Source: Nanobdellota archaeon
GTDB taxonomy: Archaea > Nanobdellota > Nanobdellia > Nanobdellales > Nanobdellaceae
Reading direction: 5' to 3'
NCBI GenBank assembly: GCA_042850255.1
Contig: AP031373.1
Location: 390,001 to 422,000, forward strand
Length of the DNA: 32,000 nucleotides
Below, in pieces: positions 1 through 23,521 of the stretch; the stretch's first letter is position 1; the number at the start of each line of letters is the position of its first letter. A model generated the notes under the pieces. That model did not search any database. It was not told where the DNA came from and was given only the letters and a program-made list of their open reading frames with translations. Made by a program: the position numbers and the translations under genes.

Positions 1-632
1 TTTCCATTGCCTAAGTTTACTAAATATACATCTACTGATTGGTATAATGTAATACTATTAACAAAATGACAAGGAACTATATTACATATAATTTCTCCAT
101 TATAATTTGTAGTACATATTTCATTTCCAGAAATATTTGTAGGGAATAAAAATACAAAAGATTCTTGGGCAGATGATTCATTTTCTAAACAAAAATTATA
201 TACAAAATAGTAAAAGTTAGAATAAAAATTTTCACATATTATTATATTTATATAATTTAATGAAAAATTTACAGAAATAGGATAACTAATTTTTTCACAA
301 TTTCCTATAAAGTTTAATATACCAAATGTATAATTTCCTACAGAAGCTCTAAATGGATAAGGAAATATAGCACATGTAGGCAATTCATTTTGATAATTGA
401 TAGTAAAATATTCTAATTTATTATAGGTTGTATAATATAAAGGATAACTAGGATAACCTAAACAATTTGGAGAGAATAAATCATATAAAATATCTTGAGA
501 GTATGAAAACTCATTTTTTTGAGCATAATTGTATAAATTTAAAGAAGAAAAAATGCTGGTTAATATTATAATACCTATTAAGAATGAAATAATTAGTATG
601 GTAGTAAATATTATAGAGAATTGATTCTTCAT
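1..632 (-). CDS. Pilin-signal-like Cys/Tyr/Asn-rich secreted protein, 3' end runs off the window (absent from ORF track)
   Basis: Hand translation of the minus strand from ATG 632-630 gives MKNQFSIIFTTILIISFLIGIIILTSIF... I checked every in-frame triplet down to position 3 and found no stop. The ATG overlaps the TGA of the upstream gene (ATGA, 629-632). It has the same MKNQ plus hydrophobic N-terminus as its neighbours. Confidence 0.6.
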   Translation of the reverse strand, partial: MKNQFSIIFTTILIISFLIGIIILTSIFSSLNLYNYAQKNEFSYSQDILYDLFSPNCLGYPSYPLYYTTYNKLEYFTINYQNELPTCAIFPYPFRASVGNYTFGILNFIGNCEKISYPISVNFSLNYINIIICENFYSNFYYFVYNFCLENESSAQESFVFLFPTNISGNEICTTNYNGEIICNIVPCHFVNSITLYQSVDVYLVNLGNG

Positions 633-1858
633 TGGTTAATACATTCATTTGGAGTTGGCGGAGTAATAGTTTCTGGACATTGGAATGGAGGTTGACATAC
701 AGGTTCTTGACATCCACAAAATACTCCACCTCCTAGGACACATTTTGAACAAACGTATGGATAATAGTCTATATATTGATAATTTACTATTATTTCATCA
801 TTATTTTCAGAATTACCATTACAGGTTATTCCACTCTGTGAAGAACATGAAGGTTTTTGTTGTGCTAAATTACAAGTATTAGATATAAGAGCTCCTGTAG
901 TGGCATTATAAATATATTGACAATCATAAATACAGTTTAAATATGCATTATATGTTATATTTTCATTATATACTACTGATGATATTGTTATAATTTGAGG
1001 AAATTCATTTCCATCATAATATACATTATATTGACTATCTGTACACGATATACTTACTACACATGCTATATTTCTATTTACACAAACCTGACATGGTATA
1101 TAACATTCATTTGGAGTTTGTATACTTTCACTACATTGTATATATGGATTTCCTGTAAATTCTTCAAATGCTTGGGCACTTATATCACTAGAATAACTAC
1201 CACTTAAAACATTTTGACAATCTTGAAATGATGTATATGGAAAAATAGTGTATGCAAATTGAACTCCTTCATTATATAGATAAAATGCAGGATTATTTAT
1301 TATATTTGCAGTTACTGCAAAGGGTATTAAAGATCCAGTACTACTACTATTAATTATTATATTTACTCCAGTAACTTGCACTGGAAAATCATAATTATAT
1401 TGTCCAGATGTTATTTCATTACAGTCTCCAATTATACCTGCTTCATAATTATCTGTAAATGTAAAATTAACATTATAAGGATAATATAAATTTAATTCAC
1501 TTAAGTCATTAAAGCTTGAATATAAATTAGCTTCATAGTCTCCAGTTAATAATCTATTAAAATAACCTAAAGCTTCATTACATGAAGGAGGAACTATACA
1601 GCCAGGTGGATAAGATGACCACTCTTGTTGGCCCCAGGAAGTTTCGCCAGCGAAATATGAGGTAGAATAAGATTGTTGTATAAAAGATGTATATAAATAT
1701 CCTAGAAAATAATCAGATATAGTATTTAAAGAATTATATCTTACAAATACCTGATTTTGTTGATACCTAAGAGATAATGTATAGAATGTTAATAATATAA
1801 TAATAATTATTATAGATAAAAATAAGATTACGTATATTATTTCTATCTGATTTTTCAT
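629..1858 (-). CDS. Large secreted/surface protein with pilin-type N-terminus, extremely Cys-rich
   Basis: 409-aa ORF. N-terminus is MKNQIEIIYVILFLSIIIIIILL. The mature part has 22 Cys by my count, is rich in Y/N/S/T/P/Q, has almost no K/R, and carries multiple N-x-S/T sequons. No family recognised. Confidence 0.65.
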   Translation of the reverse strand: MKNQIEIIYVILFLSIIIIIILLTFYTLSLRYQQNQVFVRYNSLNTISDYFLGYLYTSFIQQSYSTSYFAGETSWGQQEWSSYPPGCIVPPSCNEALGYFNRLLTGDYEANLYSSFNDLSELNLYYPYNVNFTFTDNYEAGIIGDCNEITSGQYNYDFPVQVTGVNIIINSSSTGSLIPFAVTANIINNPAFYLYNEGVQFAYTIFPYTSFQDCQNVLSGSYSSDISAQAFEEFTGNPYIQCSESIQTPNECYIPCQVCVNRNIACVVSISCTDSQYNVYYDGNEFPQIITISSVVYNENITYNAYLNCIYDCQYIYNATTGALISNTCNLAQQKPSCSSQSGITCNGNSENNDEIIVNYQYIDYYPYVCSKCVLGGGVFCGCQEPVCQPPFQCPETITPPTPNECINQ

Positions 1859-1860
1859 AA

Positions 1861-3063
1861 TTATATTTTAGAGTGAATATATAAAAGTATTAATATTATA
1901 GCTGTAACTACTATACCATGTATTATTCCTAATGCTAGTTGTATATTTGGTAAATAAAATATCGGTAATAAAAATTTATCCATATTTGGAGGCACTCCAA
2001 ATGCAGCTGCTTCCAATAATTCACCTAATATTAATTGAATTATAATTAATGTTCCAATAGTCATACCCAAAGCTTTTTTCAATATTTTTGGATGTTTTTT
2101 ATATAAATTATAATGTAATCCAGAGAAGAATGTAAAAAATGATATTAATATTCTAGTATGTAAGAAAAATGAATAATAGTCATCAAAAGTATAATAGAAT
2201 TCTCCAAATAAAATTATTAAGGAAAGTATAATTAATAAAAAATATACTGTAAAATTTTCTTGTTTATTTAGCATATTTCTATAGACTAATAAGTATATAA
2301 TAAATTCAAAAATTGATATAAATATTAATGAAAATATTGGATAAAATCTCCAATTGTTCGGATTATTATAAATAAATAGTGTAAAATAAATAGCTATAGA
2401 TATTTGGATTAAAATTACAATAAATATTGATATAAATAAATATTTCTTATATTTATTTATATTATTTAATTTAGTTAATGATACATATTCTCCTTCTTTA
2501 TAAATATTTATTAAAAATAATATTATTCCTAAAAATAATATAGATGATTCATATATAATCATAAAAATTAATGGATGAACTATTTTAATATAAGAAAATA
2601 TGCTCATCCAACTTGGAATAGTTACATCAATATCAACTTCATATATTTCAAAAATAGATTCGAAAAAATATGCAAATAAAAATAAGAATAATAAAATAAT
2701 ATATAGATATAAGGATTTTTTAGACAATTTTAATTTATTATTTACTAAAAAGTATCCTGCTATGAATGCAAAAAAATAAAAAAATATGTAGTTGGTTAAT
2801 AAAGCTGTAAGGAAGTCATATTTAATGTTTAATACAAATATTTCTATTATTATTATAAGATAAACGATCTTTAATAAATTATTTTTTGTATATTTTAATA
2901 GATATGGCATTAAAAATAAATAAATTATTCCAAATCCTATTATTAATATTTTAAAGTTCGAAATAAAAATATTATTATAAGTTAAGAATACAAATAATAT
3001 GAATACTAATAAATAAATAGTGTATATAATTACATTAATTTTGGATAAAGAATTCTTTACCAT
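1861..3063 (-). CDS. Polytopic integral membrane protein, unknown function
   Basis: 400-aa ORF made almost entirely of hydrophobic helices (I estimate 10 or more TM segments) with no soluble domain. It sits inside the operon: a 2-nt gap to the downstream gene and a 7-nt overlap with the upstream one. Confidence 0.6.
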   Translation of the reverse strand: MVKNSLSKINVIIYTIYLLVFILFVFLTYNNIFISNFKILIIGFGIIYLFLMPYLLKYTKNNLLKIVYLIIIIEIFVLNIKYDFLTALLTNYIFFYFFAFIAGYFLVNNKLKLSKKSLYLYIILLFLFLFAYFFESIFEIYEVDIDVTIPSWMSIFSYIKIVHPLIFMIIYESSILFLGIILFLINIYKEGEYVSLTKLNNINKYKKYLFISIFIVILIQISIAIYFTLFIYNNPNNWRFYPIFSLIFISIFEFIIYLLVYRNMLNKQENFTVYFLLIILSLIILFGEFYYTFDDYYSFFLHTRILISFFTFFSGLHYNLYKKHPKILKKALGMTIGTLIIIQLILGELLEAAAFGVPPNMDKFLLPIFYLPNIQLALGIIHGIVVTAIILILLYIHSKI

Positions 3064-4589
3064 ACTTTTAATATTGCTACTAAATATCCATTTGCATAAG
3101 GTACACTTGTTGGATAATAAAAGTCGTAAGTATATACATTTACTCCTGGTGGGACTGGATACCCTAAAGTTATACTATTTGATTGCTCTTGTGATATATA
3201 TGCATTCAATTCTATTTCTGTACCATATTTTGTTAAACAATAAACTCTAGCTTCTGCTATACCATTAGATCCGCTATGAGGATCCCAATATGCACCAGAA
3301 ATTATTATATAAGGTACTGAAGGATCTCTATCTAATATTGCCCACCTTGTTATATTAAATTGATATAATCCATAGCTGTAACATGCACCAGGATCGCAGT
3401 TTCCACCTACTAAATATACTAAAGGACATTGTTTTCCAACTATTGTACCGTTTATATCTTCTGTATTATTAAAAACGCCTTGTGGACAGTTGGTTCCATT
3501 ATATGTACATTCTGGGTCTGCTGCTAGAAATATATAATCTGGTTGTCCTGAAGAGTTTACATATGCTATATACAATCTTAGAACTTCGTGCCATGGATAA
3601 TCTATAAATACCTGTTGACATTCTTGTGGTATATACACAGTTCCTCTGTAAAAAGATCCTACAATATCGTTCAAATTATTCGATATTCCTAAATCATATG
3701 CTAGTAGATTTATATTCGTAGCAGTTTTATAAGCGGGAGGATTTACATAGTAATGACCTATACAATATTGATAAAGATTACATCCTCGGAAAAAAGACGG
3801 TAATTTTGTACTAGGAAATGCGGGTACCATATATCCTAAATATAAATCTTGAAAAAGAGCCCATTCTCCATTTGGACAATAAACTGACGCATTTGTAAAA
3901 TTATCACTTGGATATAAATCCGACAATGGTATACAAACATGTTCTTCTAAAGCAGATCCTGTGCATGTAGCCGGAGAATATAATGAACGTATACCCCAAA
4001 GATAACAGGAATCTTGTTGATGAAATGGAGCTGTAGCATTAACCCATCCAGCACCTTTTAATATTAAAAGTTTACCTGAAGGAGAAATTATTTCTGTAGT
4101 ATAATTATTAGTAAAGAAATATGTATAATTCCATTCATACCATTGTACTCCATTGCTATCGCTTGGCGGGTTTATTTGACAACTATCCCAATCATATGAG
4201 TTACCATTAAATAAAAACATTTGTACTAGCCATCCTGTAGCGGATGGCAGAAAATAAATAGTTAAATTCCACCTATCTCCATATATACTATTAAAATAGT
4301 TTGTTATATCTTGAGATATATTTGTGCATGTATATGAATTTATACAATAAGTATCATTTCCAGATGAGGACCAATAAGATAATAAAAAAGCATAAGATAA
4401 ATTTACCGTTTGATCATTTATATAAGGTAATAAAGTTACGCTATTTTGTATAGTAGATTCATATTGATTAACTGGTTGTGTTTGTTTGGAAATTGAATAA
4501 TTATAAGATAATAGAAAATATAATATAAAAGATAAAGATATTAAAGCAGCTATTATTATAAATAAAAGATAATTTATTTGACTCTTCAT
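3057..4589 (-). CDS. Large secreted/surface protein with pilin-type N-terminus, Cys/Tyr/Asn-rich
   Basis: 510-aa ORF. N-terminus is MKSQINYLLFIIIAALISLSFILYF. It has 16 Cys by my count, more than 10 N-x-S/T sequons, and is poor in charged residues. No family recognised. Confidence 0.65.
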   Translation of the reverse strand: MKSQINYLLFIIIAALISLSFILYFLLSYNYSISKQTQPVNQYESTIQNSVTLLPYINDQTVNLSYAFLLSYWSSSGNDTYCINSYTCTNISQDITNYFNSIYGDRWNLTIYFLPSATGWLVQMFLFNGNSYDWDSCQINPPSDSNGVQWYEWNYTYFFTNNYTTEIISPSGKLLILKGAGWVNATAPFHQQDSCYLWGIRSLYSPATCTGSALEEHVCIPLSDLYPSDNFTNASVYCPNGEWALFQDLYLGYMVPAFPSTKLPSFFRGCNLYQYCIGHYYVNPPAYKTATNINLLAYDLGISNNLNDIVGSFYRGTVYIPQECQQVFIDYPWHEVLRLYIAYVNSSGQPDYIFLAADPECTYNGTNCPQGVFNNTEDINGTIVGKQCPLVYLVGGNCDPGACYSYGLYQFNITRWAILDRDPSVPYIIISGAYWDPHSGSNGIAEARVYCLTKYGTEIELNAYISQEQSNSITLGYPVPPGVNVYTYDFYYPTSVPYANGYLVAILKVW

Positions 4590-5104
4590 CTTAAAATAAT
4601 ATATATTACTATTGCGCCTACAATTACGCCTATTGCTATATAAATGTATTCATAGTAATTAGATTTTTTTGTGGTAACCTGATTTGTATTAGTAGTAATA
4701 TTTAATGTTGTTGTATTTTCTATTATAAAATCTACATATGCGCTTTGTGGTATTAAACTAATAGGAGATATTAATGTACCATTTGGATATTCGCAATATG
4801 AAGCATTTATAGTATAATTACCAACTTCTATCGTTTTAATTACTGGAGTTAAATTATAATGTGCACAGAATGAATATTGACTAGGTACTAGATTATTATA
4901 ATAATCTATTGCATTAAATACATGCCCATCTACAATACAATATTGTCCAGATGAATTATAATAAAATTCTCCTCCTCCATATGTACAATATACTGCTAAA
5001 GGATTTCTTGTCGGATATATGAATTTTAAAAGCATCAAAATTGTTAAAATAATTAAGAAGTATTTTATTATTTTTTTAATCATTATATATTTATCAAAAG
5101 ACAT
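4586..5104 (-). CDS. Secreted tandem DUF333-like protein with C-terminal TM anchor
   Basis: 172 aa. It has an N-terminal hydrophobic signal. RNPLAVYCTYGGGEFYYNSSGQYCIVDGHVFNAIDYY resembles the DUF333 pattern (NPAxxYC..GG......G..C...dG). A second Cys pair follows (FCAH...YCEYPNGTLIS). The C-terminus is a TM helix ending in Arg. It is a paralogue of 5539..6390. Confidence 0.55.
   Translation of the reverse strand: MSFDKYIMIKKIIKYFLIILTILMLLKFIYPTRNPLAVYCTYGGGEFYYNSSGQYCIVDGHVFNAIDYYNNLVPSQYSFCAHYNLTPVIKTIEVGNYTINASYCEYPNGTLISPISLIPQSAYVDFIIENTTTLNITTNTNQVTTKKSNYYEYIYIAIGVIVGAIVIYIILR
4858..4961. repeat. 104-bp perfect repeat, copy 1 (inside DUF333-like gene)
   Basis: AATGTGCACAGAATGAATATTGACTAGG...CCAGATGAATTATAA is identical to 6171-6274. 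The flanking blocks (about 4770-4800 vs 6076-6110, and 4965-4995 vs 6278-6310) are similar but not identical. Confidence 0.85.
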
Positions 5105-5116
5105 ATATATAAATTT

Positions 5117-5542
5117 TTATTGATTATATGTAACATTTTCAGCTATTTCTGACGACGATGTTATATATATTATATTATTATCTTTCGCTATATATATATT
5201 ACCAGGGTCTAATAAAAAAGAAACAGGTTGATCATTATTATTTAATAATATAACCTGTTGGTAAAAGTTTATAGTATAATTTACATTATTATAATCGATT
5301 ATCAAATAATTATTATTAGAATATAATATAACATTATTTGGTACATTTATTTGTACATAATAATTTCCATAAGAATTTTCCATTGATATTGCAAGATTCT
5401 GTAAATTTTGTAAGAATATTTTAAACTGTTCTTCTTGTTGATTTTTTTGTACATTATAAGAATAACTAAAGTATATAGCAAAAGACAAACCTATAATTAT
5501 TAGTATTATGCCTACATTTAGAAAACTTATTTGATTTTTCAT
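5117..5542 (-). CDS. Small pilin-like protein
   Basis: 141 aa. N-terminus MKNQISFLNVGIILIIIGLSFAIYF is followed by a short beta-rich-looking domain. It has a 4-nt ATGA overlap with the upstream gene. Confidence 0.55.
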   Translation of the reverse strand: MKNQISFLNVGIILIIIGLSFAIYFSYSYNVQKNQQEEQFKIFLQNLQNLAISMENSYGNYYVQINVPNNVILYSNNNYLIIDYNNVNYTINFYQQVILLNNNDQPVSFLLDPGNIYIAKDNNIIYITSSSEIAENVTYNQ

Positions 5543-6390
5543 TTTAAATAGAATAGTAAAATAATTAAACCTACAATCATTACTACTATAGTAATTACTA
5601 CAGGTATTATATAACCACTATTGCTATTCGTACTTTCATTATTTATTCCTTCATTTTCAGTTATAATTTGATTTATTTGCTGATTTGCACTACTATTTGT
5701 TTGATTTACATATATACAAGTAAACTCTCCCAAACAATTTACTTCTACCTTATTAGGTGGTGGACAAGTTTCTAAAAAGTTTTGATATAATTGTTCTAAT
5801 GAATAATTTTGTGGACATAAATACCATGGGCTATAAGAACCATTACATGTGCCACATCCTATTTCTTCTTGATAATTATTAAGTATTTGGTAATATAAAG
5901 TTATATTTCCATTGTATAAACTATAAGGAATATAAGGAGGATTAAAGCATGGATAAACTACATTAGAACATTCTTCTACTTCCCATGGAGTATTTGGACA
6001 TTGTAATATATTAGAACAAGATATATTATTTGTTATAACATTTTCTTGCTGGTTAAATTCTGAAAATATTTGATATGGAGATATTAATGTACCATTTGGA
6101 TATTCACAATAATAATAAAATATTGTATAATTATCTATAGTTATATTCTCTTTTACTAAATTTAATCCAAAATGTGCACAGAATGAATATTGACTAGGTA
6201 CTAGATTATTATAATAATCTATTGCATTAAATACATGCCCATCTACAATACAATATTGTCCAGATGAATTATAAAAAAATATTCCTCCTCCATATATACA
6301 ATATAATTTATATATATCTTGAGAATGTAAATTGAATAAATAAGCTAAAATAATAATTAAAAAAAATAATAATAATACTTTTTTCATCAT
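5539..6390 (-). CDS. Secreted DUF333-like protein with extra Cys-rich region and C-terminal TM anchor
   Basis: 283 aa. Sec-type signal MMKKVLLLFFLIIILAYLF. The block YCIYGGGIFFYNSSGQYCIVDGHVFNAIDYYNNLVPSQYSFCAH is near-identical to 4586..5104. It ends with a C-terminal TM helix ending in Lys. Confidence 0.55.
   Translation of the reverse strand: MMKKVLLLFFLIIILAYLFNLHSQDIYKLYCIYGGGIFFYNSSGQYCIVDGHVFNAIDYYNNLVPSQYSFCAHFGLNLVKENITIDNYTIFYYYCEYPNGTLISPYQIFSEFNQQENVITNNISCSNILQCPNTPWEVEECSNVVYPCFNPPYIPYSLYNGNITLYYQILNNYQEEIGCGTCNGSYSPWYLCPQNYSLEQLYQNFLETCPPPNKVEVNCLGEFTCIYVNQTNSSANQQINQIITENEGINNESTNSNSGYIIPVVITIVVMIVGLIILLFYLK
6171..6274. repeat. 104-bp perfect repeat, copy 2 (inside DUF333-like paralogue)
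   Basis: Identical by eye to 4858-4961. It encodes SSGQYCIVDGHVFNAIDYYNNLVPSQYSFCAH in both genes. Confidence 0.85.
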
Positions 6391-8126
6391 GTATTTACAC
6401 CTACTACAGCATACATATCGCTTGGGAATGTACTTCCATATGGAGTACTAATTTCTGAAGCATAAGGAACATATAAATACCCGTTCTTCATCCAATATAC
6501 ACCAATACATGGTTGTCCAATTACCTGTGTACATTGTTGTGGGTTTTGGAAAAATTGAGCACATTCTTGTGGAGTTACATAATCTGGTGCCGCAGCATCT
6601 CCAGCTATTAAGATACATGCTGTTAAATCTCCCCATTGATTCTCTATTATCCAACATCCAGGTACCCCATATACTTCTTGACAAGTTTGTGAATTATCAT
6701 TAAATCCTACTAATAATGTAGCATGTCCTGCTTGCTGACCTTCTCCTAAATATCCTCCAATTACTAATGGTCCATAACACATTAAATCATATTTTATCTG
6801 AGTAGTATTATTAGGATTTGCAGATATTGGTACAATTTGTTGTGGATAATATAATGTATTAGATGTATCTTGACATGTATATCCACAAACATCTGATGAA
6901 TATGATAAAGCACTTGAAGGTGGTGTACATGATGCTAAAGTACCATCATATTTATTGTCTTCATTATCTAAGGATAATCCATATTGTTGTGCATATAATA
7001 AAGGATAATATATAGTACCACCATTACATCCAAATTGGTTTCCACTGCATATGCCGTTTTGTGAATTACAACATGTAGCTAATTGATATGCAGATGGATA
7101 TAGATCTTGATTTGGTTGATTGTTATATATCATATATGCAGAAATTATACCATTTCCTGTAGCAAATGCCCAACAGTCTCCACAATCTCCTTGATTTTGT
7201 ATTGGGGGTATATAGCTATTTCCGTTTATATCTCCCCAGAAGAAATATGACTGTCCGTTATATTGATATAGACAAGGACCGCTTGTATTTGGAGGTGGTA
7301 ATGGACTTGGACCTGGAGAAGGTCCAGGTGATGGAGAAGGTGATGGAGGTGGTGAAGGACTGGGAGAAGATTGAATATTTAATGTAAATGTAACAGATGC
7401 AGATTTGCTTTCATTATCTGTTGCATAATAAGTAATTGAATAAGAACCTGGAGATATTGAACTAGAAGTACTTATTGTAGATTGAATAGAACAGGAACTT
7501 GAAGTTATACAATATGTTGGGTTTATACTACAAGATATTCCTGAAGGAGCATTGCATGAAAAAGAAATATTATAATCTCCGTTCATAGATTCTTGTGCAG
7601 TTAATGATATAATAATATTATTTCCGGGTTGTAATGTAGCTTCTGATTGGTTTAAAGAAAGAAAAAGAGTATTTGATACAGGTTGATAACTTTGTTGTCC
7701 TAAATAAATTACTATACTAGTTGGAGAATTCTTTTTAACTGTTAAAGGTAATTCTTCATATGGCTCTCCATAGTACAAAGTATAATAATATCCAGAGTTA
7801 TAATACTGAATTAAATTATTGGAAGTATTTATATAAACACTGCATTCTGAAGTATAATTATAATAAGTATCATATACATAACAACTAATAGTATTTCCAT
7901 TCGCTGAAACATAATTTAAATATTTGTTTACCTTAAAATTAATATACATAGATGACCCTTCATTAGAATAGCATAATTGTTGTATAGTATTAAATAAGTT
8001 TTGACATTCTGATATGTCCATATAAACTTCCTGAGTTTGGTAGTTTATACTTGAAAACTTAAAATATAAAAATAGTGACAACCCAAAAACTATTATACTT
8101 AATATTATCCAAAACCATTTTTCCAT
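6387..8126 (-). CDS. Membrane-anchored papain-family (C1) cysteine peptidase with beta-sandwich-like domain and Pro/Ser linker
   Basis: 579 aa. N-terminal TM is MEKWFWIILSIIVFGLSLFLYF. A pilin-like small domain and a Ser/Thr-rich repeat-like domain follow, then the linker SSPSPSPPPSPSPSPGPSPGPSPLPPP (DNA about 7291-7370). The papain motifs are QNQGDCGDCWAF (Cys codon 7173-7175), GHATLLVGF (His codon 6723-6725) and IIENQWG. Confidence 0.75.
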   Translation of the reverse strand: MEKWFWIILSIIVFGLSLFLYFKFSSINYQTQEVYMDISECQNLFNTIQQLCYSNEGSSMYINFKVNKYLNYVSANGNTISCYVYDTYYNYTSECSVYINTSNNLIQYYNSGYYYTLYYGEPYEELPLTVKKNSPTSIVIYLGQQSYQPVSNTLFLSLNQSEATLQPGNNIIISLTAQESMNGDYNISFSCNAPSGISCSINPTYCITSSSCSIQSTISTSSSISPGSYSITYYATDNESKSASVTFTLNIQSSPSPSPPPSPSPSPGPSPGPSPLPPPNTSGPCLYQYNGQSYFFWGDINGNSYIPPIQNQGDCGDCWAFATGNGIISAYMIYNNQPNQDLYPSAYQLATCCNSQNGICSGNQFGCNGGTIYYPLLYAQQYGLSLDNEDNKYDGTLASCTPPSSALSYSSDVCGYTCQDTSNTLYYPQQIVPISANPNNTTQIKYDLMCYGPLVIGGYLGEGQQAGHATLLVGFNDNSQTCQEVYGVPGCWIIENQWGDLTACILIAGDAAAPDYVTPQECAQFFQNPQQCTQVIGQPCIGVYWMKNGYLYVPYASEISTPYGSTFPSDMYAVVGVNT

Positions 8127-8157
8127 ATATCTTTATAATGCTATATAATATAAAAAA

Positions 8158-8565
8158 TTATCCTTGTAGATTTATATATACATATTGTCCATTTGAGTAA
8201 ACTAATATATAATCACCTGGATTTATTGTATAATCACAGTTTTTAAATAGAACATTCGGATCTATACTTAAAATAGTATTTAATAAATCTTGACATGTAA
8301 ATGGGCTACCTTGGTAATTTATTAAATAACATAAACCAGATGCTTTTTTATCATAACAAGATATAACATCAAAAGCTACTGTATTCATAGAAGAAACATT
8401 TAATTCTACAACAGTTTGAGTATTGTTGTATGAAGGTAATGTATGATTTAAATAAGATGTAATATTTCCTTTAAAGTAATATATTATTCCTACAATAATT
8501 AATGTAGCAATTATCCCTATTATTATTAAAAATGTTAAATTTATAGGCATTTCCTGACTTTTCAT
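8158..8565 (-). CDS. Small pilin-like protein
   Basis: 135 aa. N-terminus MKSQEMPINLTFLIIIGIIATLIIVGIIYYF, then a small domain with 4 Cys. Confidence 0.55.
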   Translation of the reverse strand: MKSQEMPINLTFLIIIGIIATLIIVGIIYYFKGNITSYLNHTLPSYNNTQTVVELNVSSMNTVAFDVISCYDKKASGLCYLINYQGSPFTCQDLLNTILSIDPNVLFKNCDYTINPGDYILVYSNGQYVYINLQG

Positions 8566-8595
8566 ATTTTTAATATAATTCTTGTTAATTTATAA

Positions 8596-9078
8596 CTATT
8601 GCCATACAACTATCTGACTATTATTGTATATTATAAATATGCTTTCATATGGTATCAAAGTTTCATAATGACTTACTGGTAAATTAAAAATTAGATCATA
8701 AGGATTAAAGTTTGTATAATTTACTATAAAACTATATATAGTTGAAATGTTTAATACTACATCTTCATCTATATATACATCATAACATATACTAAATAAT
8801 CTATTAGTATTTATATTATTATTATAGCAATTTGCAACTAATCCTGCAAATTCAGAGTATATTTCATCTTTACTTTGATTTGTAAAAATGACATTTATTG
8901 CAGATGGATAATATTTTGCACATTCCGGGGAAAATCCACCTTCCGATATCAAAGTTTTACAATAATACAATTGAGAATTTGCAAAGAATTTTGTATATAT
9001 AATATCTAGTATTACAAATACTGATATTACTGCTATTATTATTATAAATATCGTATCTAGTGCAATATCATTCTTCAT
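8596..9078 (-). CDS. Small pilin-like protein
   Basis: 160 aa. N-terminus MKNDIALDTIFIIIIAVISVFVILDIIY, then a small Cys-containing domain. Confidence 0.55.
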   Translation of the reverse strand: MKNDIALDTIFIIIIAVISVFVILDIIYTKFFANSQLYYCKTLISEGGFSPECAKYYPSAINVIFTNQSKDEIYSEFAGLVANCYNNNINTNRLFSICYDVYIDEDVVLNISTIYSFIVNYTNFNPYDLIFNLPVSHYETLIPYESIFIIYNNSQIVVWQ

Positions 9079-9359
9079 ATATAACTAATATTACCTTCAT
9101 AAATATATATTATTCTGTATCCTTCAGGTATAATAATACCATCAATTGTACAATTCTGAACTAAATAAACTTTTTCATTTATCACTTTATAGTAACTCTC
9201 ATTATATAATTGATATAATTGATTACAATTTATAGACATTATATTATTACTATCTATATTATTTTTTAGATTAAATAAATATCTAAATGCAAAAAAAGTT
9301 GCTACTACTATTAATATAAAACTAATTATAGTCCAGTATATATATCCTTGACTCTTCAT
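9075..9359 (-). CDS. Small pilin-like protein
   Basis: 94 aa. N-terminus MKSQGYIYWTIISFILIVVATFFAF. It has ATGA overlaps with both flanking genes. Confidence 0.5.
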   Translation of the reverse strand: MKSQGYIYWTIISFILIVVATFFAFRYLFNLKNNIDSNNIMSINCNQLYQLYNESYYKVINEKVYLVQNCTIDGIIIPEGYRIIYIYEGNISYI

Positions 9360-11326
9360 AATTGTATTGTTGTTGGTAAATATGGGCCAAATATTGTATA
9401 AACTGCTATTATTCCTATTATTGAAAATATAAAATAAAATATAGTTCCAGTTATAAGATTTTTTCCTATATAATATGAAATCATTGTATTATCGAATCCA
9501 TACTTAATTCCTGCAGTCATAAAGGATGTTATAGCTACATATTCTATAAAAAATATTCCTATAATTGCCTCAAAATAAGTTGGTGGGATTAAATTATATA
9601 AATTAAATGTATTTACAACAAAGCTAACTAAACTAAATGATCCACCTAGTCCTAGTGATTGGCTTATCATTTGGAAAAAATAAGCAATTGCAAATAATAC
9701 AGAAACTATAGCATTATTGAATACAGTTACTAATGAAGAAATAAATGGAATTAAATCTCTAGAAGTCATATCTAACATACTAATAATTTCATTTAATATT
9801 TTTCTAATATTATATCTTATATTAATAACATTTTCTAAGTTATAGGATATATTATAAGTAATCTGAGATAAAGCTTCTGGACCCTTTACTATTGAGTATA
9901 CAATTAATTGCATAGTTTCTCTTATTAATTTAGATGGGTAATAATTTAGAGAACCAACTTTTTTATCAAATATTGATGATATCAAATCATAACCTTTTCT
10001 TAAATTATATAATGTTATTTTTAGAAATCTCTCCATTACTCCAGAAGATTTTATTATTTTATAATTTTCATAAGTTTTTTGTACAACAATTTCCATTGGA
10101 TATCCATCCTCTAAAAGTGATGCAAATTCATAAGTAACTATTGGAAACTCGTTTTCCATTTCTTCTATCTGATTTATTTTCTTTACCTTTTGAAAAGAAG
10201 TTAAATAATAGTAAGAACCTACTCCTAATCCTAATCCTAATGGTAGCATTAGTGTTAAAAATGAATAAACTATTGCCCTATCTTGATAAACTATATTAAG
10301 ATAACCATTTAAATCTCCCGGAGGTAAATATAGTATAGATAAAGATAAAGTAATTAGGTGATAAATTCCTATTATAGATAAAGAACCTAAGATTATAGAA
10401 ATAATAATAGCTGGAATTTCTTTATTTCCTACTTTAAATTTTCCTGGTTTTGGTAAATCTTTAGCTAATGATAGATCTGGTGTAGAAAAAGCAAATGGAT
10501 TTTTAGATAAAAGATTCTGAGCAATTAGAACTGTTATAATTGGTAGTATAATTATATAACTAAATGCTATAAAATAAAAACTTACAGTACTCAATAGAAA
10601 TACAGATAATATTGGTAGCATGATTAAACTTACTAATGGCATCATTACCAAAAATGATACAATAACTGTAGCAGGTTCTTTTAATTCATCTACATATGAT
10701 TGAGATTTTTCTAAAGATTTTTTTAGTATCCAATTTAATATTCTATCTACTATTTTATTTATTTCTTCTATAGAATTTTTATATTTAATATTTACTAAAT
10801 GAGTCATTGCATATACAAAATCTGGATTTAAATAGAACCATCTATATTGATAAAATTGTAATGCAGATTCTATATCTTTAAATCTATTTGTTTCTAAATC
10901 ATAAACTAATTTTTTGAAATCATCTGCTAATATGCCTTTCATATAGTATGCTACATATTGTATAGCTCCTTCTAAATTAGGATTTCTTTTTATATATAAT
11001 GCTAAATATAATATGATCCAAATAGCCTCAGAAGTTACCTGTATTTTTGCAATTTGTGTATAAAATATTGGATAATACATTAAATAAAAATCTAATATTA
11101 GTAAAGAAATAAACAAAGAAAAAGCTAATTGAAAGGATATAAAATTTAATACAAAAAATATAACTATAGAGAAGATAAGTAGTGATATAGTAGAAGAAAA
11201 TATTTTGTTAGGATCTGTATTTAATTTATTTAACCATAAATGGAAAGCATATATTTTATATAATCTATCTGGTGCTTTTAATTTTATTAAATTGAAATTA
11301 TTGTAAAAATATTCAAAAAAAGACAT
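9356..11326 (-). CDS. FlaJ/TadC/PilC-like polytopic membrane platform protein (two T2SS-F-like cytoplasmic domains)
   Basis: 656 aa. TM clusters alternate with two roughly 100-aa helical soluble segments. One starts at PIFYTQIAKIQVTSEAIW...NLEGAIQYVAYYMKGILADDFKKLVYDLETNRFKDIESAL. The other starts at EMENEFPIVTYEFASLLEDGYPMEIVVQKTY... Both follow the T2SSF pattern (x-lp-l-ll-G-sl-al, g-l-ef-i, g-al). Size and topology match archaeal FlaJ/TadC. The call rests on pattern recognition only. Confidence 0.6.
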   Translation of the reverse strand: MSFFEYFYNNFNLIKLKAPDRLYKIYAFHLWLNKLNTDPNKIFSSTISLLIFSIVIFFVLNFISFQLAFSLFISLLILDFYLMYYPIFYTQIAKIQVTSEAIWIILYLALYIKRNPNLEGAIQYVAYYMKGILADDFKKLVYDLETNRFKDIESALQFYQYRWFYLNPDFVYAMTHLVNIKYKNSIEEINKIVDRILNWILKKSLEKSQSYVDELKEPATVIVSFLVMMPLVSLIMLPILSVFLLSTVSFYFIAFSYIIILPIITVLIAQNLLSKNPFAFSTPDLSLAKDLPKPGKFKVGNKEIPAIIISIILGSLSIIGIYHLITLSLSILYLPPGDLNGYLNIVYQDRAIVYSFLTLMLPLGLGLGVGSYYYLTSFQKVKKINQIEEMENEFPIVTYEFASLLEDGYPMEIVVQKTYENYKIIKSSGVMERFLKITLYNLRKGYDLISSIFDKKVGSLNYYPSKLIRETMQLIVYSIVKGPEALSQITYNISYNLENVINIRYNIRKILNEIISMLDMTSRDLIPFISSLVTVFNNAIVSVLFAIAYFFQMISQSLGLGGSFSLVSFVVNTFNLYNLIPPTYFEAIIGIFFIEYVAITSFMTAGIKYGFDNTMISYYIGKNLITGTIFYFIFSIIGIIAVYTIFGPYLPTTIQL

Positions 11327-11331
11327 TATCT

Positions 11332-12078
11332 TTAGGATATGCTATTTAGCTGTGGATATGGTATATTTAATAAGAATTGACACAATGGTACTGGTGTGTT
11401 ACCATTCATATTTAATGCAGGACAGTTTCCTACAACGTATAATATTTCATTAGTAACATTCAGATTTAATGTACAGTTATAATTTGTATTATAATAGTCT
11501 AATACCTTTAGCAATGCTAAGAATACCTGATTTGTTATCCATGTTGGAGTTGTAGAAGAACAAGCTTGTGGTCCTGGATATAATAATTGTGATGGAGTAG
11601 AGAAATATATATTTTCTTGTAATGTTGTTGCGTTAAATATAGTAGCTGGTGAATAGTTACCAAATACCAATGAAGTAGCAGTTACAGAATCATACTGTAA
11701 ATTATCTATATAATTCTGACATTCTAGATACATACAATCTAGTGGAGATACAGGATATCCCTGGTATTCACACTGATTATTTCCTCCATATAATTGTAAT
11801 GCCACACTACATGGTACAGAATTTGCACATAAATAATAACCTGGTTGTGGCTCTACAATTCCATTTCCTATGCTTACATATTTTGAACAGAAATCTATAT
11901 AGCTATTTTGACATGCACTTACACATTCACTAACTGCTTGTTGTTTTTCTGTGTTAGAAATTTGAGAAATATGTGAAGCTTGTTGTTGAAATAATTTTAT
12001 TACTATTACTGCTACTACTAACATTATTATTATTACGAAGATCAATTCTACTGCCATATCTACAGCCCTCTTCTTCAT
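11332..12078 (-). CDS. Pilin-like protein with Class-III-signal-like motif (first gene of the array), Cys-rich
   Basis: 248 aa. MKKRAVDMAVELIFVIIIMLVVAVIVI resembles the archaeal class III signal pattern (basic, small residue, then x-S/M-x-E-L/F-hydrophobic). The mature part is Cys/Tyr/Asn/Pro-rich with sequons. Confidence 0.55.
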   Translation of the reverse strand: MKKRAVDMAVELIFVIIIMLVVAVIVIKLFQQQASHISQISNTEKQQAVSECVSACQNSYIDFCSKYVSIGNGIVEPQPGYYLCANSVPCSVALQLYGGNNQCEYQGYPVSPLDCMYLECQNYIDNLQYDSVTATSLVFGNYSPATIFNATTLQENIYFSTPSQLLYPGPQACSSTTPTWITNQVFLALLKVLDYYNTNYNCTLNLNVTNEILYVVGNCPALNMNGNTPVPLCQFLLNIPYPQLNSIS

Positions 12079-12100
12079 ACGATGATAAAGATATTTTGGT

Positions 12101-12110
12101 ATTTATAAAT
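12101..12110 (-). promoter_or_regulatory. TATA-like box for the 12078..1 array
   Basis: ATTTATAAAT is centred about 27 nt upstream of ATG 12078. The same geometry is seen at other operon heads in this window, which implies a leaderless or near-leaderless mRNA. Confidence 0.35.
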
Positions 12111-12113
12111 TTA

Positions 12114-12521
12114 TTAATAATGTATTATAAAAAGAAGCTCTTTACCTTCTATTAATTTTTCAATTATTTTTCTATTAATATCTCTAGCGCTTTTATTAGA
12201 GTATATTGCTAATGTTCTGTTATCTATATAATTACTTTTTCTTATTACTATACTTTTTTCATCTGATAATTTTAAATTTTTTGACCCGTATGCTATTAGA
12301 TTATCAATTAAATCATCCACCTTTATTTCTACTTTTATTCTTCCTTCATCTAATAAATATTCTTTTAGATCTAATGGTATATCTTTTACTGAATGAGTAG
12401 AGTTAATACCTATTATGCAATCTCCTCTCTCTGTTAAAAAATTTTCTTTTGTTATTTCTAAAGTAGATTTATGAGTTGCCTTAATTAACCTATCTCCCTT
12501 AGCACTTATTACTAATTTCAT
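12114..12521 (-). CDS. DUF371-family protein
   Basis: 135 aa. KATHKSTLEITKENFLTERGDCIIGINS matches the conserved DUF371 core (THxTTxEiTke..LT.RGDCIiGv) as I recall it. Confidence 0.5.
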   Translation of the reverse strand: MKLVISAKGDRLIKATHKSTLEITKENFLTERGDCIIGINSTHSVKDIPLDLKEYLLDEGRIKVEIKVDDLIDNLIAYGSKNLKLSDEKSIVIRKSNYIDNRTLAIYSNKSARDINRKIIEKLIEGKELLFIIHY

Positions 12522-13353
12522 TTAAGTATTCCAATATTCTTCTAGTTACATTTTTACCGACATATTTTTCAAATCCTTCATATTGAAATATATTATGTAC
12601 ATCTATAAGATAATAATTATCATCTTTTATTAATACATCATATGCAAATATTTGTAAATCTGCTTTTTCCATTATTTTATATCCTATTTCCTTTAATTCT
12701 TCATCTATTTCATAAGGTTTTCCATAGGCTCCTTGACTTATATTTCCTTTAAAATTATTTTCATTTATTCTTTGCATACCTCCAAAAGGTTCGTTAATGA
12801 ATATAACTCTAATATCTTTTTCATATGGTATATATTTTTGAAAGATCAAAAATCTAAGATTTCCTCTTTTATTTATTAAATAATCCTCTAAAAATCTATA
12901 TAATTCTTCTTCATTATTTATTTTATATACAAATTCTCCTCTATGTATCAATTGATGTTTTATTATCATTGGAAATCCTATTTTCTTAATTACATGTTCT
13001 ATATTATCTAAAGAATATATTTTAGCAAACTCTGGTATATTTACATATTTATATAATAGATGATAAAACATTGCTTTATACATTATAGTTTCCTTTACAT
13101 GTATTCTATTTACAACATTTTTTCCATTATCATATAAAAACTTAGCTAGTAGATGTGAATCGTAGGAAGCTGTTGCTCCGACGAAAAAATAATAAGTATC
13201 GTAATTTAGTATCTTGCTTTCTTCAAATGGAAATATTTCTATTTTATCCATTTCTAATATCTCTATATTATCAAAATTTCTTACCTCTTCCTTGATTCTT
13301 TTTATCCTATAATCGTCAATATCTTTTCTTATTAGTATAGCTATTTTGTTCAT
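12499..13353 (-). CDS. ATP-grasp fold ligase (RimK-like)
   Basis: 284 aa. An N-terminal pre-ATP-grasp region is followed by GFPMIIKHQLIHRGEFVYKINNEEEL, FIFQKYIPYEKDIRVIFI and a C-terminal YLIDVHN-type segment, typical of RimK/LysX/MptN-like ligases. The substrate cannot be assigned. Confidence 0.55.
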   Translation of the reverse strand: MNKIAILIRKDIDDYRIKRIKEEVRNFDNIEILEMDKIEIFPFEESKILNYDTYYFFVGATASYDSHLLAKFLYDNGKNVVNRIHVKETIMYKAMFYHLLYKYVNIPEFAKIYSLDNIEHVIKKIGFPMIIKHQLIHRGEFVYKINNEEELYRFLEDYLINKRGNLRFLIFQKYIPYEKDIRVIFINEPFGGMQRINENNFKGNISQGAYGKPYEIDEELKEIGYKIMEKADLQIFAYDVLIKDDNYYLIDVHNIFQYEGFEKYVGKNVTRRILEYLNEISNKC

Positions 13354-13403
13354 TTTAATATCTAATATAAAAAAATTATAAGTTTTTAATATAAATTAGG
13401 AAT

Positions 13404-13715
13404 ATGAGTAAAAAAAGTTCTAAGTCTACTAAAAAATCTTCTAAAGAAAAAAAGAATGTAAGAAAATTGAGGGATATTTCTGAAATAGATATAACCAAAC
13501 ATTATTTGGTACCAAAGCATGAATTATTATCTGAAGAAGAAAAACAAGAATTATTAAAGAAATATAATATTAGATTATCCGATTTACCAAGAATAAAGAT
13601 ATCGGATCCTGCTATAAAGAATTTAGGAGCAAAACCAGGAGATATAGTAAAAATAATTAGAAATTCACCTACTGCTGGGGAAAGTGTATATTATAGGGTT
13701 GTTGTTGAGGATTAA
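13404..13715 (+). CDS. rpoH: DNA-directed RNA polymerase subunit H (Rpo5)
   Basis: [69 protein letters not shown] is a canonical RpoH core. The ATG ORF adds a roughly 27-aa Lys/Ser-rich N-terminal extension. An in-frame TTG at 13467 would give a normal-length protein, so the start is uncertain. Confidence 0.85.
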
Positions 13716-13739
13716 ATTTATAAATATATTTTATAAATA

Positions 13740-23035: not shown

Positions 23036-23521
23036 ATGCCCTCTCGGAGTCTCCTTCCTAAAAAAGTATTTTTTACTTCAGGGATTGGGGTTGCAGAAGA
23101 TCCATTATTAAGTTTTGAATTTGCATTGAGAGATGCAAAAATAGAAAAATTTAATTTAGTTCCAGTTTCTAGCATAGCGCCTCCAAATATAAAAATAATA
23201 GATATAAATGAAGGATTAAAAAAATTAAAACCTGGTCAAATAGTATTTTGTGTTCTAGCTAGGTTTACTTCTAATGAGGAAGGAAAGGAGATATATTCTT
23301 CAGTAGGTGTAGCATTACCAAGGGATAAAAAATATAATGGATATTTTACAGAATATCACGGATACTATACTGGAAAGGAAGATGGATACGCAAAAAATAA
23401 AGCAGAATATATGTTAAAGACAGCATTTAATATTGAAGTAGAGAATAGTTTTGAGGTATTTAGAAAAACAAGGGTAGAAAAATATACAACAGTTGTATCT
23501 TCTGCAGTATTTATATTATAG
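23036..23521 (+). CDS. pdaD: Pyruvoyl-dependent arginine decarboxylase
   Basis: 161 aa. LPKKVFFTSGIGVAEDPLLSFEFALRDAKIEKFNLVPVSSIAPPN matches the PdaD N-terminal region, including the V-S-S self-cleavage site. Confidence 0.75.
   Translation: MPSRSLLPKKVFFTSGIGVAEDPLLSFEFALRDAKIEKFNLVPVSSIAPPNIKIIDINEGLKKLKPGQIVFCVLARFTSNEEGKEIYSSVGVALPRDKKYNGYFTEYHGYYTGKEDGYAKNKAEYMLKTAFNIEVENSFEVFRKTRVEKYTTVVSSAVFIL

Follow-up and report, generated by a model that had tools for sequence, protein, structure and literature searches.

The closest described counterparts of the locus analysed here are the Epd pilins of Methanococcus maripaludis (DUF361/'Class_IIIsignal', archaeal TFF system 1) and the substrates of the Sulfolobus peptidase PibD. 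Substrates of EppA carry the sequences KGQI, KGQV or RAQI, and EppA requires the Gln at position +1 (PMC4371748; PMC4187195); Gly at position −1 is described as 'absolutely critical' in the tested systems (PMC4471445). Predicted PibD substrates have leaders of as few as 3 residues, which the enzyme cleaves (Ng 2009, cited in PMC10117864). Two independent surveys detected no prepilin peptidase in Nanoarchaeota (PMC4471445; PMC4858521), the second of which includes Nst1 (Nanobsidianus, family Nanopusillaceae), and the published absence concerns N. equitans and Nst1, not YN1. A non-canonical −1 residue thus matters in a lineage in which no pilin-processing enzyme has been found so far.

We analysed a 32-kb window, the whole stretch of DNA considered here, from the Nanobdellota archaeon YN1 (Nanopusillaceae), a tiny parasitic archaeon, in which a sequence-only reading had noticed seven proteins that begin with M-K-[S/N]-[Q/D] followed by a hydrophobic helix. 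All seven starts were confirmed on the minus strand at 632, 1858, 4589, 5542, 8565, 9078 and 9359 (MKNQFSIIF, MKNQIEIIY, MKSQINYLL, MKNQISFLN, MKSQEMPIN, MKNDIALDT and MKSQGYIYW, respectively), and the hydrophobic stretch after each motif had a best 19-residue Kyte-Doolittle mean of 2.4–3.3. The start codons are unambiguous, and the 3-residue leader does not stem from misannotation, because no in-frame ATG, GTG or TTG lies between the preceding stop and any of the seven starts. Six of the products measure 94, 135, 141, 160, 409 and 510 aa, and the seventh, at the window edge, at least 210 aa; no similarity among them was detectable beyond the N-terminus, so the shared start is a module rather than the result of recent gene duplication. 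From composition, only 0.03 such starts would be expected among 36 genes (P(≥7) ~1e-15), and the motif was present in 7 of the 11 cluster genes and in 0 of the 25 genes elsewhere in the window (Fisher p = 4e-5). With the cross-genome definition M-x(0-2)-[KR]-x-[QD] plus helix, applied to eight Nanopusillaceae loci, positives made up 51 of the 92 ORFs within the cluster and none of the 96 ORFs beyond it. Chance is excluded as the source of the shared start.

A nucleotide-level effect, arising from AT-rich codon bias after ATG or from an A-rich initiation context of coupled or leaderless genes, is hardly credible as the source of the shared start. The genome has a G+C content of 25%, the motif is written in the codons AAA/AAG, AAT/AGT and CAA/CAG, and Gly can become Ser and then Asn by single transitions (GGT>AGT>AAT), so that AT pressure may have influenced the choice of residues in place of Gly. 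However, among 1125 ATGs on both strands of the window only seven are followed by K[SN][QD], exactly the seven gene starts, and other translationally coupled genes of the same operon lack the motif; moreover, a transmembrane helix always follows it, and at the protein level its K/R and Q persist across synonymous codon changes and K/R exchanges.

The seven genes are tightly coupled, with start and stop codons that overlap by 4 nt, and lie in one operon behind the gene of a 656-aa polytopic membrane protein (YN1_4460; 9356..11326, minus strand, as are all features below). YN1_4460 gave no direct Pfam or NCBIfam match, and GspF, its top match among PDB profiles, reached an E-value of only 0.8. 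Its assignment was instead made by transitive homology, from a profile of the 656-aa family to the members of that family and from these to Pfam T2SSF: the profile finds 1343 representatives, including two (P0165 and P0161; E about 1e-111 and 1e-116) that match T2SSF above the cut-off over two stretches each, and a further homologue (P0012) adjoins a T2SSE ATPase. Foldseek of the AF2 model (pLDDT 85) against the PDB returned no convincing PilC match (best 3jc8 PilC, probability 0.6, E 0.4). This chain of homology shows YN1_4460 to be a type IV pilus platform of the T2SSF/FlaJ/TadC type that Pfam misses. No pilin, class III or T2SSF model of Pfam or NCBIfam scored above threshold for any window protein.

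The operon opens upstream of the platform with a 248-aa Cys-rich candidate pilin (11332..12078), whose start, MKKRA|VDMAVELIF, presents a near-canonical class III site after a 5-residue leader, and which shows a faint, sub-threshold NCBIfam match to GspK. In its seven orthologues, −2 is always R, −1 is G, A or S (three, three and one), and +3 is always M. Downstream, the start of the 94-aa pilin-like protein (9075..9359; MKS|QGYIYW; MKNQ, MKLQ, MKAQ and MKGE in orthologues) overlaps the platform stop by 4 nt, followed by the pilin-like proteins of 160 aa (YN1_4440; 8596..9078; MKN|DIALDT) and 135 aa (8158..8565; MKS|QEMPIN), the latter with orthologues starting MKNQE, MAIKSQE, MAMKGQE and MAMKSLE. 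The next gene (6387..8126) encodes a 579-aa protein in which a leaderless pilin-like N-terminal helix (MEKWFW...) is joined by a Pro/Ser-rich linker to a papain-family Peptidase_C1 domain (Pfam E 6e-18). In six genomes this protease sits instead on a different protein with an MK(R)xQ start, and the N-terminal module of the 141-aa pilin-like protein (5117..5542; MKN|QISFLN) carries Peptidase_C1 in other genomes; the domain has been exchanged between two distinct N-terminal carriers. The 141-aa protein itself shows a faint NCBIfam match to the minor pilin ComGD (E 0.026, below the cut-off). The remaining motif-bearing genes encode pilin-like proteins of 510 aa (3057..4589; MKS|QINYLL; 16 Cys and 15 N-glycosylation sequons) and 409 aa (629..1858; MKN|QIEIIY; 22 Cys), and one that is cut by the window edge (1..632; MKN|QFSIIF; 214–216 aa in orthologues). 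The ectodomains are Cys-rich, sequon-rich and mutually unrelated, as expected of pilin heads.

Two further operon proteins, a Cys-rich surface protein of 283 aa whose N-terminus is Sec-like (5539..6390) and its 172-aa paralogue (4586..5104; 64% identity over 97 aa), both with a C-terminal transmembrane anchor, start with MMKKVLLLFF and MSFDKYIMIKK and lack the motif. These two bear on whether the seven proteins carry ordinary Sec (class I) signal peptides with a long h-region, cut by signal peptidase I after the hydrophobic stretch, with MK[SN]Q as a conserved n-region. Sec signals likewise place a positive n-region before a hydrophobic segment, and the ectodomains are clearly extracytoplasmic, but the true Sec-like proteins of the operon begin otherwise, the hydrophobic segments of the seven are of transmembrane length (20–25 residues), no small-x-small site follows them, and related proteins bear K-G| directly before the helix. 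In the AF2 model of YN1_4440 (pLDDT 86.6), one unbroken helix runs from residue 2 to residue 45 and packs onto a small globular alpha/beta head, as in pilins, although Foldseek of this model against the PDB gave no pilin-like match. We therefore regard the Sec reading as very unlikely.

Taking these observations together, we propose, with a probability of roughly 70%, that the seven proteins are type IV pilin-like subunits of the minor-pilin or pseudopilin type, and also surface-protein carriers, in a type IV filament system of the DPANN type in YN1, and that their common start is this lineage's version of the class III signal. The minimal cytoplasmic leader M-[KR]-x would keep the N-terminus inside, and the hydrophobic helix of ~20–25 residues that follows Gln +1 would first act as a membrane anchor, inserted N-in by SRP/Sec, and later serve as the assembly interface at the T2SSF-type platform. 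Assembly into a filament or pseudopilus, like processing of the leader, is a step that we infer.

To trace the origin of the signal, we counted residues by position over the N-termini of orthologues from eight Nanopusillaceae genomes, 53 in all. Position −2 was K or R in all 53, and +1 was Gln in 42 and Asp in 7, whereas −1 was N in 22, S in 15, L in 4, Y in 3, G, A, V and E in 2 each, and T in 1, so that Asn or Ser made up 70%. The leader measured 3 aa in 39 cases, 4 aa in 9 and 5 aa in 5. In four more distant loci with the same platform family (L004, L013, L016 and L017), −1 is Gly in 23 of 23 N-termini, often as M-K-G|, and the N-terminus of YN1_4440 aligns to MKG|IALST of a 165-aa homologue in L004. 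Because these relatives uniformly keep Gly, the motif is a derivative, particular to this lineage, of the EppA-type class III signal ([KR]-G|Q-I-S), in which the need for Gly or Ala at −1 has been relaxed in Nanopusillaceae, with Asn and Ser preferred, Leu, Tyr, Val, Glu and Thr tolerated, and K/R at −2 and Gln at +1 kept.

The resemblance to a class III signal that the sequence-only reading had remarked on is thereby strengthened by the operon with a platform homologue, by canonical M-K-G| or K-R-G|Q in relatives, by an EppA-like Q-[IVF]-[SNE] at +1 to +3 and by the helix and head predicted for one member, and its view of Asn and Ser at −1 as non-canonical is right. Asn and Ser are indeed preferred in Nanopusillaceae, but since orthologues also take L, Y, V, E, T, A and G, −1 looks like a relaxed position rather than a new fixed specificity. 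The 3-residue leader, which it had considered unusual, is not new, because PibD cuts such leaders (PMC10117864), and M-K-G is common in related DPANN loci; the novelty lies in the missing Gly/Ala at −1. To speak of a shared targeting or assembly code is fair, provided that this code is understood as a degenerate version of the usual pilin code. The change at −1 coincides with published searches of Nanoarchaeota in which neither a prepilin peptidase nor cognate pilins were found.

Removal of the leader is a separate question. Our working call is that no classical A24 prepilin peptidase with Gly/Ala specificity processes the seven proteins, and at slightly below even odds we favour a cut directly before Gln4 by an enzyme, either divergent or so far unrecognised, that would read K/R at −2 together with Gln at +1; that the 3-residue leader is never removed has a somewhat smaller, still substantial chance. 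We identified no prepilin peptidase candidate in the window or in the Nanopusillaceae cluster loci, and the only polytopic cluster protein weighed as an EppA-like candidate, the conserved 400-aa YN1_4370 (1861..3063; no Pfam or NCBIfam match), has invariant H302, T303, R304, H317, E348, E351, H382 and H397 but no invariant Asp. We also found no report in PMC10117864 or PMC4187195 that PibD tolerates Asn, Tyr, Leu or Glu at −1.

The lack of a detectable prepilin peptidase in Nanoarchaeota makes a signal-anchor that stays uncut a serious rival reading, a plausible one that we would nevertheless bet against. The class III signal would then be vestigial, no longer cleaved after loss of the A24 peptidase, and the proteins would persist as type II surface proteins, held N-in by a signal-anchor, or as pseudopilin-like machinery parts embedded in the membrane. 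K/R would be kept for the positive-inside rule, and Asn/Ser at −1 with Gln/Asp at +1 could be read as N-cap and first-turn residues of the anchor helix. In keeping with this, −1 is N, S, G or T, which we take to be good helix N-cap residues, in 40 of 53 N-termini, and L, Y, V or E in 11 of 53, bulky or charged residues at a place where every prepilin peptidase tested needs a small P1 residue, with which they are incompatible. Orthologues without any leader also exist, in two orthogroups: MEKWFW, residue 1 of which aligns to residue 5 of the orthologue MRNQ-VEKFLW in locus L003, and MNIAIEQ. On the other hand, Gln at +1 is stricter than a capping role needs and is the same residue that EppA requires, and the 248-aa gene upstream of the platform keeps canonical K-R-[GAS]| in all seven genomes, which suggests that some class III peptidase activity persists. 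To our knowledge, assembly of archaella needs archaellin processing in every archaeon studied. Relatives of YN1 make archaella (PMC11420986; PMC10117864), implying such processing, and the published peptidase absence does not extend to YN1 itself.

Alternatively, the cluster could build a different envelope structure, such as the cone-shaped attachment organelle of YN1, with a platform-like protein, no pilus-type filament, and the N-terminus as an anchoring or sorting tag. YN1 bears a large attachment organelle (PMC11420986), no secretion ATPase is encoded in the 32-kb window or adjoins the cluster in any Nanopusillaceae locus, and the cluster, whose synteny is kept in all Nanopusillaceae loci examined, includes a papain-like protease, large Cys-rich ectodomains and the conserved 400-aa membrane protein. 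However, we found no link between the cluster genes and the organelle, and in Woesearchaeota, Aenigmarchaeota and other contigs the platform family also stands beside classical pilin-like genes and a T2SSE ATPase. We consider such a structure improbable; it would not rule out a pilin-like assembly mechanism, and the two readings can hold together.

Among known systems, the Epd pilins share with the YN1 proteins K/R at −2, Gln at +1, a Q-[IV]-S-like start with the helix directly after it, and several genes clustered with TadC-type platform genes, and system 1 has been reported in DPANN. The Epd pilins, however, keep Gly/Ala at −1, have longer leaders and carry Glu at +5, and a dedicated peptidase, the 9-TM EppA, is often encoded in their locus, whereas in the YN1 cluster −1 is mostly Asn or Ser with almost anything possible, +5 Glu is absent and no EppA-like gene was found. 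According to PMC10117864 and PMC4187195, Sulfolobus PibD substrates likewise make do with a 3-residue leader and have their peptidase gene outside the pilin loci, but keep Gly/Ala at −1. The four more distant DPANN loci, of which L013 is from Woesearchaeota, have the same platform family of 650–700 aa, rows of small genes downstream and M-K-G leaders, with an adjacent T2SSE ATPase in L017, and differ in their invariant −1 Gly, compared with Gly in 2 of 53 and Ala in 2 of 53 N-termini in Nanopusillaceae. The protease fusion is reminiscent of modular type IV pilins such as Streptococcus sanguinis PilB, in which, according to PMC8179133, a functional module is joined to a pilin-type N-terminus; here the fusion is archaeal, the pilin is putative, and the protease domain occurs on two carriers.

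The seven N-termini of the form M-K-[S/N]-[Q/D] singled out by the sequence-only reading are all present at minus-strand starts in the window, each followed by a strongly hydrophobic segment (Kyte-Doolittle 19-mer means of 2.4–3.3). Their three-residue leaders, taken as the residues before the presumed cleavage site (marked here by a slash), are genuine, because no in-frame ATG, GTG or TTG lies between the start and the preceding stop in any of the seven. That the shared start is more than coincidence was borne out by the counts: K[SN][QD] follows 7 of the 1125 ATG triplets on both strands, these 7 being the seven gene starts, and amino-acid composition predicts 0.03 such starts per 36 genes. 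The motif opens 7 of 11 genes in the cluster versus 0 of 25 in the rest of the window, and the generalised motif with its helix, counted over eight Nanopusillaceae loci, opens 51 of 92 ORFs in the cluster versus 0 of 96 outside it. AT bias as the cause was rejected on these counts, and recent paralogy was rejected because the seven proteins have no detectable similarity past the N-terminus. Most of the seven ectodomains are Cys-rich (one has no Cys) and all carry N-glycosylation sequons, indicating that the protein bodies are extracytoplasmic. One N-terminal module common to otherwise unrelated ectodomains follows the pattern of pilins.

The window has a G+C content of 22–30% and carries archaeal housekeeping genes (rpoH, split rpoB, rpoA′/A″, ribosomal proteins, FtsZ and Spt5). 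Its 656-aa protein (9356–11326 (−)) is identical to the NCBI entry 'hypothetical protein YN1_4460 [Nanoarchaeota archaeon]'. The Nanobdellota member YN1 has been brought into culture as an ectosymbiont of Sulfurisphaera ohwakuensis; it bears archaellum-like filaments and a large organelle for attachment (PMC11420986). Its nearest database relatives are Nanopusillaceae, including Nanobdella aerobiophila. The motif-bearing genes lie in one minus-strand operon running from 12078 down to position 1, with start/stop overlaps of mostly 4 nt. It opens with a 248-aa protein bearing the near-canonical site MKKRA/VDMAVE, followed by the polytopic 656-aa membrane protein, three small MK[SN]x proteins of 94, 160 (YN1_4440, 8596–9078 (−)) and 135 aa, a 579-aa protein (6387–8126 (−)) in which a Pro/Ser linker joins an N-terminal helix to a Peptidase_C1 domain, a 283-aa Sec-type protein (5539–6390 (−)), a 141-aa MKNQ protein (5117–5542 (−)), a 172-aa paralogue of the 283-aa protein (4586–5104 (−)), a 510-aa MKSQ protein, a 400-aa polytopic membrane protein (YN1_4370, 1861–3063 (−)), a 409-aa MKNQ protein and a last MKNQ protein that runs past the window edge.

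The cluster was kept at the same site, beside RimK-DUF371 and the rpo operon, in every retrieved Nanopusillaceae locus. The RimK-like ATP-grasp and DUF371 genes lie immediately upstream on the same strand in all of these loci; in the window, where the region including the 248-aa gene is 11332–13353 (−), 35 nt separate that gene from DUF371. The 283-aa and 172-aa proteins are Cys-rich paralogues, 64% identical over 97 aa, with Sec-like N-termini and a C-terminal transmembrane helix plus basic tail; other genomes hold a single copy of this type, so that YN1 (and locus L008) has undergone a local duplication or rearrangement. Elsewhere in the window, an Fpg/Nei-type DNA glycosylase is apparently split (24505–25231 (−)) into a 172-aa ORF with the N-terminal and H2TH domains, the latter cut at profile position 57 of 93, and an overlapping 88-aa ORF in another frame with a CxxC...CxxC zinc-finger-like tail; the split may mark a pseudogene, or reflect a frameshift or an error in sequencing. 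Ordinary features, at 31140–31762 (−) and 23516–24346 (−), are a toxin–antitoxin pair (VapC-like PIN toxin, MazE/AbrB-type antitoxin) and a tyrosine recombinase resembling XerA.

All seven window proteins have Lys at −2 and six have Gln at +1, while position −1 reads N, N, S, N, S, N, S, with no Gly or Ala. Acidic +5 occurs solely in MKN/DIALD, the others reading QGYIY, QEMPI, QISFL, QINYL, QIEII and QFSII after the site. The likeness to K-G-Q-I-S drawn earlier was apt: Q-[IVF]-[SNE] is kept, and the substrates of M. maripaludis EppA, which requires the +1 Gln, read KGQI, KGQV and RAQI (PMC4371748).

The comparison covered 53 N-termini from seven orthogroups in eight Nanopusillaceae genomes. 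Canonical class III sites were judged by the core rule [KR][GA(S)] alone, since a six-residue FlaFind-type pattern missed even clear K-G/ proteins. Position −2 is always K (38) or R (15), 53 of 53 in all, and +1 is Q in 42, D in 7, I in 2, E in 1 and L in 1. At −1 we found N 22, S 15, L 4, Y 3, G 2, A 2, V 2, E 2 and T 1, Gly and Ala together making up 4 of 53. The −1 position is therefore indeed non-canonical, as had been claimed, and wider than the Ser or Asn of that claim. Single orthogroups hold up to five different −1 residues with a usually invariant +1. Position −1 is nevertheless biased rather than free, since N and S account for 70% versus a background of ~14%. Of the 15 Ser codons at this position 10 are AGT or AGC, and of the 22 Asn codons 21 are AAT, which fits a GGT>AGT>AAT path under AT pressure. 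Leaders have 3 residues in 39 sequences, 4 in 9 and 5 in 5 (for example MAIKS/Q, MKRY/Q and MIKN/Q). In all seven genomes, by contrast, the 248-aa gene upstream of the 656-aa gene has a leader of five residues, always R at −2, and no −1 residue other than G, A or S. Met1 of the 579-aa protein (MEKWFW...) aligns with residue 5 of an orthologue starting MRNQ-VEKFLW, indicating that this protein is leaderless in YN1 and most relatives, and one orthologue of the 160-aa protein begins MNIAIEQ, without Lys. What these comparisons show is an N-terminal module, M-[KR]-x-Q and then a helix of transmembrane length, conserved on unrelated extracellular domains.

The 656-aa protein gave no direct Pfam or NCBIfam match, and its best PDB sequence-profile match, GspF, was not significant (E 0.8). 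A profile built from 19 homologues reached 1343 cluster representatives, and a narrower alignment yielded 4 genome loci. Two full-length homologues, P0165 and P0161, which match the 656-aa family profile at E ~1e-111 and ~1e-116, match Pfam T2SSF (PF00482) above the curated cut-off (42 and 34 bits), in two stretches each, and three other full-length members gave weaker T2SSF matches. An AF2 model of the 656-aa protein (pLDDT 85) had nothing significant against the PDB in Foldseek, the sole thematically relevant match being PilC of 3jc8 (prob 0.6). Pilin-like genes adjoin the platform in all loci, and the homologue P0012 in locus L017 has a 751-aa T2SSE ATPase directly upstream and a row of K-G/ proteins downstream. 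No T2SSE ATPase was found in the window or near the cluster in any Nanopusillaceae locus. In L006, an Aenigmarchaeota contig, the platform homologue (2762–4321) stands alone; 6 kb off, on the opposite strand, lies a T2SSE ATPase that itself has weak or faint precomputed Pfam matches to PIN and STAND-type domains. By transitive homology and gene context, with no direct family match, we accept the 656-aa protein as a putative T2SSF-type pilus platform, in a co-transcription-like arrangement with the pilin-like genes.

Four distant loci with the same platform family, L004 (32% identity), L013 (Woesearchaeota), L016 and L017, served as an out-group. Small neighbours of the platform there start with MKG/IALS, MKG/LSLE, MKG/INLA, MSKG/LNAL, KKRG/QELS, NKRG/QIEM, MRKG/ITTW, MKG/IAGL and the like, with Gly at −1 in 23 of 23 and three-residue M-K-G leaders common. 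The L004 protein MKG/IALSTLAYMILAIISL... aligns with the 160-aa window protein MKND-IALDTIFIIIIAVISV..., which by sequence comparison shows the window motif to be homologous to canonical class III sites. The earlier interpretation is supported in part: the signal is of the class III pilin type, and its shortness is ordinary, three-residue leaders being already known. L004 itself carries two platform paralogues in tandem (1–9000 and 10001–16400), one of 669 aa cut by the locus edge and one of 696 aa, and behind each comes a separate row of M-K-G/ genes, with a ParA/MinD-type ATPase downstream.

An AF2 model of the 160-aa protein from an 11-sequence alignment (pLDDT 86.6) has a single helix over residues 2–45 and then a small alpha/beta domain, a predicted 'stick and head' layout. 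A Sec class I signal has an h-region of roughly 7–15 residues, then a small-x-small signal peptidase I site. This explanation of the N-termini is unlikely, as the hydrophobic segments span 20–25 residues, are continuous with the 44-residue helix and have no AxA-like site; in the model this helix packs on the head, which argues against a cleavable Sec signal. Neither the 160-aa protein nor its family gave a fold match in the PDB, sequence-profile matches being noise, and such absence is common for pilin heads. No pilin-related Pfam family matched the cluster proteins at E ≤ 0.1, and NCBIfam gave only faint, sub-threshold matches to minor (pseudo)pilins, ComGD (E 0.026) and GspK (E 0.46).

We infer that the N-terminal module would be inserted via SRP/Sec with the N-terminus inside, that assembly at the platform would use its helix as the interface, and that adhesive or enzymatic heads would be displayed, including a papain-family protease on such an N-terminus in six relatives. 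Cleavage before Gln4 would be consistent with the conserved +1 Gln, the determinant known from EppA, with the canonical site kept by the 248-aa gene upstream of the platform and with the archaella that relatives assemble; bulky or acidic −1 residues in 11 of 53 N-termini, the existence of leaderless orthologues and the lack of a reported peptidase for the phylum speak against classical cleavage. That a divergent or unrecognised enzyme cuts the leader has, in our judgement, a little under even odds. Asn or Ser at −1 with Gln or Asp at +1 would also suit a helix N-cap, by the general capping preferences of these residues, and a leader that is not cut at all is an alternative to which we give only a slightly lower chance, the small remainder falling to other outcomes.

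The only candidate for the cutting enzyme in the gene neighbourhood was the 400-aa protein, conserved inside the cluster in all Nanopusillaceae loci; no 9-TM EppA peptidase was found there. Peptidases of family A24 are marked by two conserved catalytic Asp, the second in a GxGD/GxHyD motif. The 400-aa protein was rejected as a hidden A24/EppA peptidase, having no invariant Asp in five orthologues and no GxGD/GxHyD motif. Its invariant polar residues in these orthologues (H302, T303, R304, H317, E348, E351, H382 and H397) fall in the last 100 residues; it had no Pfam or NCBIfam match, CPBP/Rce1-like motifs in the right order were not found by eye, and a homologue search, saturated by low-complexity candidates, returned the protein itself and one orthologue. 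This His/Glu/Arg-rich protein is a weak lead for a new leader-cutting enzyme, and the only one in the locus.

Taking these observations together, we speculate, with a probability of about one in three, that type IV filament-type structures arise in Nanopusillaceae with no classical prepilin peptidase involved. The M-K-x leader might stay in place throughout, or be genetically deleted in some orthologues; if true, this would be the first case of pilin-like subunits that function with such an uncleaved or deleted leader. Alternatively, K/R-x/Gln would be cut, whatever the P1 residue, by a new enzyme that is either non-A24 or extremely divergent. Filaments made without the classical peptidase would explain the failure to find pilins or a peptidase in nanoarchaeal genomes.

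The pilin-like carrier of the Peptidase_C1 (papain-family) domain varies between genomes. YN1 has it on the leaderless MEKWFW protein (6387–8126 (−)), attached by the Pro/Ser-rich linker. In six relatives the carrier is the MK(R)xQ protein called 'set E', which in YN1 corresponds to a protein of just 141 aa (5117–5542); comparison genes are L009 13612–14922, L011 13612–15198, L014 11376–12884, L015 7077–8546 and L003 8103–9611. On the pilin-type anchor of an obligate ectosymbiont, such a protease could act on the host envelope, and together with the large Cys-rich ectodomains it makes the cluster a candidate host-contact apparatus. The cluster likely supplies the missing pilin-like set and platform of Nanoarchaeota, a set that rule-based and HMM predictors miss because it has no Gly/Ala at −1 and a three-residue leader and because its platform is too divergent for HMMs. 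The Nanobdella surface study could not see proteins with unrecognised signal peptides; adding [KR]-x-Q plus helix to the predictors would recover such surface proteins. These proposals can be tested directly, since both YN1 (with Sulfurisphaera) and Nanobdella aerobiophila (with Metallosphaera) are in culture.

Our literature search returned no description of this cluster or motif. Archaeal class III signals require Gly/Ala at −1 preceded by a charged −2 residue (PMC4471445; PMC4187195), and mutational studies found the −1 Gly absolutely critical (PMC4471445). As relayed in PMC10117864, FlaK needs five leader residues, whereas PibD has predicted substrates with three-residue leaders and cuts engineered ones (Ng 2009). 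The Nanopusillaceae N-termini share the +1 Gln (42 of 53) with EppA-type (Epd, DUF361) pilins, but those have an acidic +5 and often a neighbouring 9-TM EppA, the former mostly and the latter entirely lacking for the window proteins. Two genome surveys describe Nanoarchaeota with secretion ATPases, some with archaella, in which neither a prepilin peptidase could be detected nor cognate pilins identified: Berry and Pelicic detected no such peptidase in Nanoarchaeota (PMC4471445), and Makarova et al. reported the A24 peptidase absent from two nanoarchaea (PMC4858521), one of them Nst1 (Nanobsidianus), a member of Nanopusillaceae. The YN1 paper likewise gives FlaBDEHIJF and no FlaK (PMC11420986). 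The link to this documented gap raises the interest of the cluster: the three-residue leader is a known feature, and the unusual part, the loss of Gly/Ala at −1, falls in exactly the lineage reported to be without a prepilin peptidase.
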